Positions 1,790-38,936 of a DNA stretch of 38,936 nt are shown here, piece by piece. Source of the stretch: a virus (taxonomy: Duplodnaviria; Heunggongvirae; Uroviricota; Caudoviricetes). The stretch spans positions 1-38,936 of the IMG/VR virus record IMGVR_UViG_2802429244_000013; one strand, 5' to 3'. How positions within the stretch are numbered: the first letter of the stretch is position 1; each line of letters starts with the position of its first letter. The notes below the pieces were generated by a model. That model had not been told where the DNA came from. It saw nothing but the letters and a program-made list of their open reading frames with translations, and did not search any database. The position numbers and the translations under genes were made by a program.

Positions 1790-1824
1790 AAAAAAGAAGT
1801 AAAAGCCGTCGACACTTCGACGGC
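1790..1824 (-). terminator. rho-independent terminator after the tail fibre operon
   Basis: Stem gccgtcga/tcgacggc with loop cact at 1805-1824, followed on the minus strand by a T-rich tract; sits right after the tfa stop at 1833. Confidence 0.5.
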
Positions 1825-6291: not shown

Positions 6292-6316
6292 TAAAAAACC
6301 CGCCGGGTGGCGGGTT
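6292..6316 (-). terminator. rho-independent terminator of the small membrane protein gene
   Basis: Hairpin cccgcc-gggt-ggcggg at 6299-6314 followed on the minus strand by TTTTTT, 17 nt after the stop at 6333. Confidence 0.55.
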
Positions 6317-34970: not shown

Positions 34971-35167
34971 TTCTTGGGGATAAATCGTCCATAACTGAGC
35001 GCAGGCTAAGTTCTGCGCTCTGAAGCTTCCGAACCGAAGTTTCTGTACCCCAACCCGCAATTTCTGCATTTTTTGCAAGTTTCAGGATCCAGTCTCGTAG
35101 TTCGCCGGGAGTAAGATTTCCAGCATTGATAAACGGTTTGATTTTCATTGTTAGTTACCCTATTCAC

Positions 35168-36363: not shown

Positions 36364-36387
36364 ACCGCCGGAAGGCGGTTTTTTTTT
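36364..36387 (+). terminator. rho-independent terminator after the repressor gene
   Basis: Hairpin ccgcc-ggaa-ggcgg followed by nine T residues. Confidence 0.65.
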
Positions 36388-37039: not shown

Positions 37040-37114
37040 AAATAACGACATTGCTGTGTGTAGTCTTGGCGGCATCAGTTTTTTCTTGAAGTTCGGCTGA
37101 TGTCCGCCCTTTTT
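37040..37114 (+). ncRNA. dicF: DicF-like small RNA candidate
   Basis: TTGGCGGCATCAGTTTT matches the recalled DicF core at 16 of 17 positions; long hairpin ggcggcatcag / ctgatgtccgcc then CTTTTT; lies between the repressor-proximal genes and the kilR-like gene. Confidence 0.35.
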
Positions 37115-37279
37115 AAAGTGAATTTTGTGATGCGGTGAATGCGGCTAAGCGCACGCGGAACAGTTAAAAGCATCAGTGTTATGGGTGGATTATCCGGCGT
37201 TAATTGTTAACTGGTTAACGTCACCTGGAGGCACCAGGCACCGCATCGACAAAATTCATTTGTAAAAATGGAGATAATT

Positions 37280-37501
37280 ATGATTGCTCATCACTTCGGA
37301 ACTGATGAAATACCACGTCAGTGTGTGACCCCTGGCGATTATGTTCTTCATGAAGGTCGGACATATATCGCCTCGGCAAACAATATTAAAAAGCGAAAAC
37401 TTTATATTCGTAGCCTGACTACAAAAACATGCATTTCTGACTGCATGATTAAAGTCTTCCTCGGTCGTGATGGTTTACCTGTAAAGGCGGAGTCATGGTA
37501 A
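37280..37501 (+). CDS. kilR: KilR-like small protein (73 aa), putative cell-division inhibitor
   Basis: ATG at 37280 with GGAG RBS; 73 aa; synteny with Rac kilR-ydaE-racC-recE. Confidence 0.45.
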
Positions 37502-37745: not shown

Positions 37746-38021
37746 ATGATTACCAATTATGAAGCCACTGTTGTAACTACCGATGACATTGTTCACGAGG
37801 TGAATCTGGAAGGAAAGCGCATTGGCTACGTAATTAAAACAGAAAATAAAGAAACCCCATTCACTGTGGTTGATATCGATGGTCCATCAGGCAACGTAAA
37901 AACACTTGATGAAGGTGTCACAAAAATGTGCCTGGTTCACATCGGAAAGAATCTGCCCGCAGAAAAAAAAGCCGGATTTCTGGCAACTCTGATCGCAATG
38001 AAATTAAACGGTGAAATCTGA
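37746..38021 (+). CDS. racC: RacC-like protein (91 aa)
   Basis: Track ORF 37698..38021; ATG at 37746 with AAGGAG RBS; size and synteny match Rac racC. Confidence 0.5.
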   Translation: MITNYEATVVTTDDIVHEVNLEGKRIGYVIKTENKETPFTVVDIDGPSGNVKTLDEGVTKMCLVHIGKNLPAEKKAGFLATLIAMKLNGEI

Positions 38022-38120
38022 AAAAAAGAAAGCCTGCACAGTGTGCAGGCCTGAGTGAAGAACCTGGGACATTTATTCATCACTCGCAGTAATTTTAATC
38101 TGAGTTGAGGTTAAAAAACA

Positions 38121-38936
38121 ATGAGCACAAAACCACTCTTCCTTTTACGGAAAGCGAAAAAATCATCCGGTGAACCTGACGTCGTCCTGTGGGCAAGTGA
38201 CGATTTTGAATCGACCTGCGCCACTCTGGACTACCTGATCGTTAAGTCAGGTAAAAAACTGAGCAACTATTTTAAAGCTGTTGCCACAAATTTTCCTGTC
38301 GTTAATGACCTTCCCCCTGAAGGTGAGATCGATTTTACCTGGAGTGAACGCTATCAACTCAGCAAAGACTCCATGACCTGGGAACTAAAACCGGGAGCAG
38401 CGCCAGACGACGTTCACCACCAGGATAATGCTCAAGAAACCAAAGAACTGGCGGGAGGCCAGGAAGAAAACGCGCAGGCAGACGCCCACGAGGATTGCCA
38501 GGATTGCGAAGTCTCTGTAGCCACTTTGCGGTTCACACAGCGTCTTCTGCACATTTTTACGTATGCAGCCGGGGATCGGAAATACCTGCATCATGCCACC
38601 CGTGAACAACGCAAACACATTACTGCTCTTGAGATGGATCAGGAAAACAGCTATGTCCAGAATCTGCTGTTGGCCATACGCAGCATGGCAGAACCGACAA
38701 CTCTGGATAATGCCGCCCTGCTCCGCCTGACTGATGCAATTAAGGCAGTGTTCTCTATCACGAAAAAACATCAGCCCTATGAATTTAAGAATTTCATTTC
38801 AGCCTGGCTGGATACCGAACACATTGATCGCGGTCTTCTGACAAAAGAATGGCGAAAAGGGAATCGTGTTTCACGCATCACTCGCACGGCTTCCGGTGCT
38901 AATGCTGGCGGCGGGAACCTCACCGATCGCGGCGAA
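38121..38936 (+). CDS. recE: exodeoxyribonuclease VIII (RecE) N-terminal part, runs off the window
   Basis: Hand translation from ATG 38121 is open to the window end (272 codons); [26 protein letters not shown]... and [35 protein letters not shown] match RecE as recalled; not in the ORF track because it has no stop in the window. Confidence 0.6.

Follow-up and report, generated by a model that had tools for sequence, protein, structure and literature searches.

Lambda OOP, a short antisense RNA encoded opposite the 3′ end of cII, has an intrinsic terminator at its end. The left arm of the Rac prophage of E. coli has two annotated small RNAs, the antitoxin sRNA RalA, encoded opposite the operon strand, and the DicF-like sRNA KilS, and thus does carry regulatory RNAs that are expressed in the lysogen. 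Silence of recET, of which recE is the exonuclease gene used in recombineering, is a classical phenotype of K-12 and is relieved by sbcA mutations.

In K-12, Term-seq placed an RNA 3′ end at NC_000913.3 1417486 (+), in the class ‘antisense racC’ (Adams et al. 2021, PMC7815308, supplementary file 1). The position occurs three times in that file, with average read counts of 185,664 and 146,140 in two sheets; among the rows listed, about six of roughly 75 have higher counts, and the value falls within the range of annotated sRNAs, which in the same table include sokC (66,698) and sgrS (6,222). Other strong Rac 3′ ends among the entries listed are at 1419679 (-) and 1420148 (-), one an ‘orphan’ between ydaG and racR and one inside racR (PMC7815308). 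No RNA gene is annotated at 1417486 in NC_000913.3, though ralA and kilS are annotated nearby.

The racC–recE hairpin on its two strands

‘The window’ denotes here the whole stretch of DNA that was analysed (38,936 nt, IMG/VR virus record IMGVR_UViG_2802429244_000013, Caudoviricetes). It shares 99% identity with E. coli strain JNU and ~92% with the Rac prophage of K-12, in which the genes flanking the hairpin are annotated racC and recE. The product of 37746..38018 shares 97% protein identity with K-12 RacC and is closed by the stop codon TGA at 38019..38021, and the downstream gene is recE by RefSeq annotation in near-identical genomes. The locus is carried by 1781/5426 E. coli genomes (about a third). 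Features of the racC–recE region are collected in Table 1.

Table 1. Features at and around the racC–recE spacer (window coordinates).
Feature	Position	Strand	Basis and remarks
racC-like gene, 91 aa, upstream neighbour	37746..38021	+	K-12 RacC identity; RefSeq annotation of homologous loci
U-tract 5′-TTTCTTTTTTT-3′	38021..38031	-	Reaches into the A of the racC stop codon
Predicted ~61-nt antisense RNA	38025..38085	-	Putative 5′ end from the promoter model; predicted 3′ end by K-12 analogy
Terminator stem-loop AGGCCUGCAC-ACU-GUGCAGGCUU	38030..38052	-	10 pairs; at the base, one is G-U and one A-U
Palindrome GCCTGCAC-AGT-GTGCAGGC	38032..38050		8-bp arms, 3-nt loop; sequence
Possible 5′ stem-loop SL1, GAGUGA-UGAA...UUCU-UCACUC	38053..38085	-	Abuts the terminator; folds; suggestive
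Invariant 39-bp block AATTTTAATCTGAGTTGAGGTTAAAAAACAATGAGCAC	38091..38129	both	recE ribosome-binding site/start (+); putative antisense promoter (-); mosaic junction
Putative -10 TAAAAT	38092..38097	-	PWM scan
Putative -35 TTGTTT, 18-nt spacer	38116..38121	-	Adjoins the complement of the recE ATG; PWM scan
recE-like gene, 5′ part, runs off the window	38122..38936	+	recE, exodeoxyribonuclease VIII, in 99%-identical strain JNU

Reading out the sequence confirmed the perfect 8-bp stem that a first-pass annotation had described, starting at the 11th base after the racC-like TGA (10 nt between) and flanked on the plus strand by aaaaaaagaaa directly 5′ and ctgagtgaag directly 3′. The same annotation had called the hairpin one without a U-tract, which holds for the plus strand, where no Ts follow the stem, but not for the minus strand, on which the A-run is itself the U-tract: directly after the stem comes its complement, UUUCUUUUUUU. 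Hairpins described as lacking a U-tract therefore need checking on both strands. As duplex DNA, the palindrome spans 19 bp: a single central base flanked by two 9-bp arms.

Perfect 8-bp stems with loops of 3–8 nt number seven in the whole 38.9-kb window, against 3.9 +/- 2.4 in 200 dinucleotide shuffles; four of the window's stems have at least six G/C per arm, against 0.51 +/- 0.70 expected, so that one such hairpin alone would be mildly unlikely. The fold has a predicted energy of -14.5 kcal/mol on the plus strand and -16.0 on the minus strand (z ~ -3.5), a stability equalled by 1/200 shuffles, and intergenic position, T-run on the minus strand and conservation together make the hairpin more than a chance occurrence. 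The motif GCCTGC-N7-GCAGGC has one exact copy in the window and five copies with two mismatches; this total of six, against 2.0 expected, was reached by 1/100 shuffles and is mostly at chance level. With a single exact copy, a REP-like element or repeated operator was rejected.

The three further perfect GC-rich 8-bp hairpins lie at 1805..1824, 6297..6316 and 34997..35020. The first two have A-rich runs ahead of them (aaagaagtaaaa and cagaaagtaaaa, respectively) and thus also resemble minus-strand terminators. Elsewhere, a hairpin at 36364..36379, ACCGCCGGAAGGCGGT, has TTTTTTTTAC behind it on the plus strand and was scored on the minus strand too; possibly, it serves as a terminator separating the ydaF-like region from the kilR leader.

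On the minus strand, every sequence feature of an intrinsic terminator is present at the racC–recE hairpin, and the in vivo 3′ ends are those of its orthologue. Such terminators have a G+C-rich stem of ~5–14 bp, a loop of 3–8 nt and in vivo 3′ ends ~7–9 nt past the stem; the site has eight perfect pairs (six of them G-C), rising to ten on the minus strand, whose DNA reads AGGCCTGCAC-ACT-GTGCAGGCTT followed by the tail TCTTTTTTTC. In a terminator scan of 5 kb this hairpin, read on the minus strand, was the top match (10 pairs, 6 G-C, loop 3, tail TCTTTTTTTC). Counted from the 8-bp stem, 10/11 bases of the tail TTTCTTTTTTT are T, whereas the plus-strand tail, CTGAGTGAAGAACCT, is no U-tract, and the tail scores are 4.49 and 0.65, respectively. 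The terminator discriminant was +31.8 on the minus strand and -38.0 on the plus strand, and among the 143 copies described below it was above zero in 60/143 on the minus strand and 0/143 on the plus strand, the K-12 allele falling slightly below zero (-3.9); these values, calculated with the d'Aubenton-Carafa formula, are approximate in absolute terms, but the strand contrast is robust. A bidirectional terminator was considered and rejected: the plus-strand tail is CTGAGTGAAG, and A/T-rich sequence is confined to the racC-proximal flank, which makes the site unidirectional.

The K-12 3′ end falls at the orthologous hairpin. There, recE (1414786..1417386) and racC (1417488..1417763) are both on the minus strand of NC_000913.3, and the antisense RNA ends ...GCCUGCGCCAUACGCAGGCUAUUUCU-3′, inside the U-tract and 7 nt past the stem GCAGGC, from which it follows that an abundant antisense RNA ends at this place in vivo in K-12. 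That evidence concerns the type B allele, which is not the allele of the window; given its longer U-tract and equally stable stem, however, the window allele should terminate at least as well, and by analogy with K-12 the 3′ end of its RNA is predicted at ~38025. Both the scan of the region, in which this was the best terminator-like site on the minus strand, and the mapped 3′ end in K-12 thus support the earlier suggestion of a terminator for antisense transcription. The hairpin is very probably the stem-loop of a Rho-independent terminator for minus-strand transcription, antisense to the kilR-ydaE-racC-recE operon.

Conservation of the stem and mosaicism of its surroundings

Conservation was assessed in 143 racC–recE copies from E. 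coli genomes, phage records and IMG/VR prophage contigs, gathered with a pattern that fixed the core of the downstream block, and in 147 racC ends returned by a search without a requirement for that block. The distinct spacers, 25 in all, form two deep alleles: type A, that of the window, GCCTGCAC-NNN-GTGCAGGC, and type B, that of K-12 and O157, GCCTGCG-NNNNN-CGCAGGC. The outer hexamers GCCTGC/GCAGGC and their 7-bp spacing are invariant in both. The stem is kept in 147 Rac-like copies with compensatory changes, the double changes that preserve it being A-U to G-C at an inner pair and A-U to U-A at the base. For a 9-pair consensus helix on the minus strand, 198/198 pair cells were standard across 22 distinct variants, with two pairs changing on both sides; the covariation score was reached by 0/500 shuffles and slid controls were 18–47% paired, the variants representing essentially two independent lineages. 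More distant relatives that might strengthen the covariation were sought with RacC, one genome per species, and this search returned Escherichia/Shigella and a few mislabelled metagenome bins only.

The T-rich tract on the minus strand is likewise kept in all variants, in both alleles and in a divergent outlier (L024, TTTTTCCCATT). The loop is unconstrained, with at least 10 sequences (AGT, ACT, AAC, TGT, GAC and TCA in type A; TATGG, CCATA, TATGA and TATGC in type B). Pairing is therefore conserved over sequence, and a kept stem and tail with a free loop is what would be expected of a terminator.

The loop, at 38040..38042 in the window, is a mutation hotspot, and it inverts (L001:3338-3342 versus L005, same column). 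In type B, TATGG is found in ~80 copies and its exact reverse complement, CCATA, in 10, with spacers that are otherwise identical. This 5-nt flip indicates that the loop was inverted and not point-mutated; the probable route is template switching inside the hairpin.

Some of the matching records carry unexpected labels. PP818812.1, named ‘Actinobacillus phage vB_Apl-pPE4’, matches this Rac-like region of E. coli at 98% identity, and metagenome bins labelled Candidatus Nanosynbacter and ‘Proteobacteria bacterium’ have a racC that is 96–97% identical. These host and bin labels look doubtful, which suggests contamination or mis-assignment.

The 39-bp block over the recE start was invariant in 11/11 BLAST-derived sequences and, in the search that did not require it, exact in 146/147 racC ends, with a single SNP in the other; this conservation could stem solely from the translation-initiation signals of recE. 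Window and K-12 sequences are 97.5% identical within racC, 94.5% within recE and ~100% across the block, compared with 57% for the interval that separates the racC stop from the block and 49% for the body of the predicted RNA alone. The hyper-divergent island (38022..38090) starts 1 nt after TAAAAT, ends at the racC stop and matches the region predicted to be transcribed.

Two unrelated recE 5′ alleles (MSTKPLF... and MSTDKQVYPLYYEAK...) join the same block directly after ATGAGCAC, and any conserved promoter must therefore lie in the block. The switch between recE N-terminal alleles right after the common ATGAGCAC is seen, for example, in L042, L008 and L065, one allele beginning MSTDKQVYPLYYEAKNDKV; the recE of the window also differs from that of K-12 in its middle part. 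Either spacer allele combines freely with either recE 5′ allele, indicating that the block and the end of racC act as recombination junctions. In the Rac-like prophage of E. coli PapRG-04-4 (L143:1160-1535), racC is replaced by a 115-aa gene, ‘DNA breaking-rejoining protein’, with its stop 24 nt before the recE ATG; hairpin, RNA body and -10 are all missing, and homology resumes at AATCTGAG. At the level of sequence, this fits a putative promoter-RNA-terminator unit that travels with racC.

The predicted antisense RNA and competing readings

The 3′ end is present in a published table, unremarked, and the terminator is ordinary. The value of a routine terminator lies in its pointing to an abundant K-12 RNA 3′ end opposite the recE leader, where no RNA is annotated, and what it ends is probably an uncharacterised antisense RNA of the prophage. 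Whether that transcript would be a ~61-nt RNA, made in the lysogen from a sigma-70-like promoter over the recE start and ribosome-binding block, is an evenly balanced question; its start could instead lie further inside recE, or it could be a processed fragment.

TTGTTT-18-TAAAAT scores 9.97 bits, which places it among the best 27 when 389,050 configurations across the window are compared, and is the best minus-strand candidate upstream of the terminator, although it fails a stricter consensus scan, the -35 having 3/6 matches. The AAAAT of the -10 is invariant in 25/25 distinct spacers, in both alleles, at bases that the search pattern had left free. The 67-nt stretch holding the predicted RNA (38087..38021) folds at -26.6 kcal/mol (z = -4.55, 0/200 shuffles as stable), and the K-12 equivalent, of 64 nt, at -24.9 kcal/mol (z = -4.89). 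SL1 alone is weakly better than shuffles, with z = -1.9 and -1.4 on the minus strand against -0.9 and -0.8 on the plus strand. Its K-12 equivalent is a CAGUG...CACUG stem with the closing pair swapped from G-C to C-G, and an SNP in L018 keeps a G-U pair on the minus strand only; SL1 as a 5′ stem-loop of the antisense RNA is suggestive. A coding reading was rejected: the 48-aa minus-strand ORF at 37937..38083 reads across the terminator, and a short ORF that K-12 has in this stretch is not shared.

RNA polymerase arriving from the recE side would transcribe AGGCCUGCAC-ACU-GUGCAGGCUU and then UCUUUUUUU; the hairpin would form in the exit channel, and the weak rU:dA hybrid would free the transcript ~7 nt past the stem. 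An RNA begun near 38085 would consist of the terminator preceded by a 5′ stem-loop. The least that the terminator would do is keep antisense transcription out of racC, ydaE and kilR. On the operon mRNA, the complement of the predicted RNA begins 4 nt past the racC stop and ends ~22 nt short of the recE Shine-Dalgarno sequence; the RNA would thus not directly mask the ribosome-binding site. More speculatively, the RNA or its transcription may damp recE expression, which might come about through occlusion of the promoter and ribosome site, through collision with transcription of the operon, or because RNase III cuts the ~60-bp sense/antisense duplex. The fullest form of this proposal is that Rac-type prophages have a dedicated, lysogen-expressed antisense RNA of ~61–64 nt, in two ancient cassette alleles, ~50% diverged, that keep the fold only, and that this RNA lowers recE/recT expression; in that form it is doubtful.

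Existing records were consulted for the RNA under several headings. No transcription start near the locus was found in Kim 2012 or in SMRT-Cappable-seq data, and the RNA is absent from sRNA predictions based on Hfq RIL-seq and from the small-RNA candidates of Shinhara 2011. Among the entries listed in the TERMITe 3′-end supplements there is no matching end; full-text literature on racC/recE yielded no description of this antisense RNA, and Rac transcriptome papers nothing on the racC–recE spacer. Rfam 15 has no family for the site, the sole overlapping match scoring 16.1 bits against a threshold of 50 (E = 7.1).

The principal competitor to a dedicated RNA grants the terminator, itself well supported, and denies the product: the site would be a backstop for diffuse antisense transcription out of the A/T-rich recE, or the relic 3′ end of a lost minus-strand gene. 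In keeping with this are the search for an annotated sRNA, which found none, and the weaker promoter-like sites that the PWM scan placed on the minus strand further inside recE. Yet the K-12 read count is high, comparable to those of real sRNAs, and Rho normally truncates antisense RNAs that are long and untranslated (PMC7815308). The two unrelated alleles of the recE 5′ end have, moreover, one terminator and block in common, and a -10 whose AAAAT does not vary immediately precedes the divergent island. We regard a backstop without a dedicated functional RNA as somewhat unlikely. Less probable again, and able to coexist with the terminator, is an element of the sense strand that would protect the 3′ end of the kilR-ydaE-racC mRNA from 3′-5′ exonucleases after cleavage in the spacer, or pause RNA polymerase, either of which would uncouple racC and recE levels. 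Elements of this kind typically follow a stop codon closely, as the hairpin does; it also folds on the plus strand, and databases list recET-lar-ydaCQ as a separate operon. Titration of RacR raised racC, ydaE, kilR, ydaF and ydaG by ~40–70-fold, recE and recT not being among the examples named in the text, but that text lists examples and is not a test. The plus strand, on the other hand, offers no U-tract and a discriminant below zero in all 143 copies, and the conserved tract adjoins the stem on the opposite side. Read from the plus strand, the 13 G-U cells of the minus-strand helix (L044 and 12 variants at the stem base) would become A-C mismatches, with L047 the opposite case, its change giving a wobble pair on the plus strand only. 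Among the entries listed, published 3′ ends near the site in K-12 lie on the antisense strand only, though the operon was repressed in those conditions (PMC7815308).

The remaining readings carry little weight beside a minus-strand terminator. The first-pass annotation had offered an RNase III or processing site in the operon transcript, for which no support emerged: at 8 bp on the plus strand (within a stem of 8–10 bp) the helix is too short. A canonical RNase III substrate has roughly two helical turns (~20 bp or more). Cleavage of a sense/antisense duplex by RNase III could occur and would be a different mechanism from processing of a hairpin in the mRNA. Nor was a protein-binding site borne out. 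A dimeric protein bound to GCCTGC-N7-GCAGGC, or some other role of the palindrome in DNA (operator, recombination, cruciform), would account for hexamers and spacing that are invariant in both alleles and for the mosaic junctions close by; but the inner positions vary with complementarity kept, the stem base covaries outside the hexamers (A-U to U-A), the loop is free, the adjacent T-tract is conserved and the mapped RNA 3′ end fully accounts for the site. Since the palindrome occurs once in the window it belongs to no operator set, to our knowledge there is no candidate binding protein, and we consider this reading very improbable. A chance palindrome without function has next to no probability: although ~0.5 GC-rich perfect 8-bp hairpins are expected in a window of this size, the stem is kept by compensatory changes across alleles whose flanks are ~50% identical, and its orthologue has a mapped 3′ end.

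Were a discrete antisense RNA confirmed, it would be a simple candidate regulator of recET; a dedicated one that lowered recE/recT expression would be a further, so far unrecognised, contribution to the silence of recET in K-12. A discrete RNA of this kind would also offer a natural case of an antisense RNA diverging almost freely while its fold, terminator and promoter stay fixed.

Relation to known terminators and small RNAs

In its GC-rich stem of 8–10 bp, short loop and immediately 3′ U-tract, the window site is like canonical intrinsic terminators of E. coli. The terminator at K-12 1417486 shares with it the position between racC stop and recE start and the outer stem GCCTGC/GCAGGC; the two differ in their inner pairs (A-U/C-G in the window, G-C in K-12) and loops (3 versus 5 nt), and the U-tract of the window is longer. 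Bidirectional terminators share a symmetric GC-rich intergenic hairpin with an A-tract on one side, whereas the window site is A/T-rich on one side only.

RalA and KilS are encoded at loci other than that of the predicted RNA, with no Rfam or sequence match between them. Just upstream of kilR, two sub-threshold Rfam matches were observed on the plus strand, DicF at 37055..37109 (41.1 bits, threshold 48) and STnc100 at 37111..37287 (42.3 bits, threshold 47). Positioned against kilR, the DicF-like match overlaps the site at which the sRNA KilS (b4833) is annotated in K-12.

The predicted RNA differs from lambda OOP in lying in the left operon, in the racC–recE spacer, in having no sequence similarity to it, and in a putative promoter that is over the start of the downstream gene rather than beyond a gene end; it would act as OOP does if sense/antisense pairing triggers RNase III cleavage. 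By analogy, the likeness to OOP would be that of a short lambdoid-prophage RNA directed against an early operon, consisting mostly of stem-loops and a terminator, and fully complementary to the mRNA.
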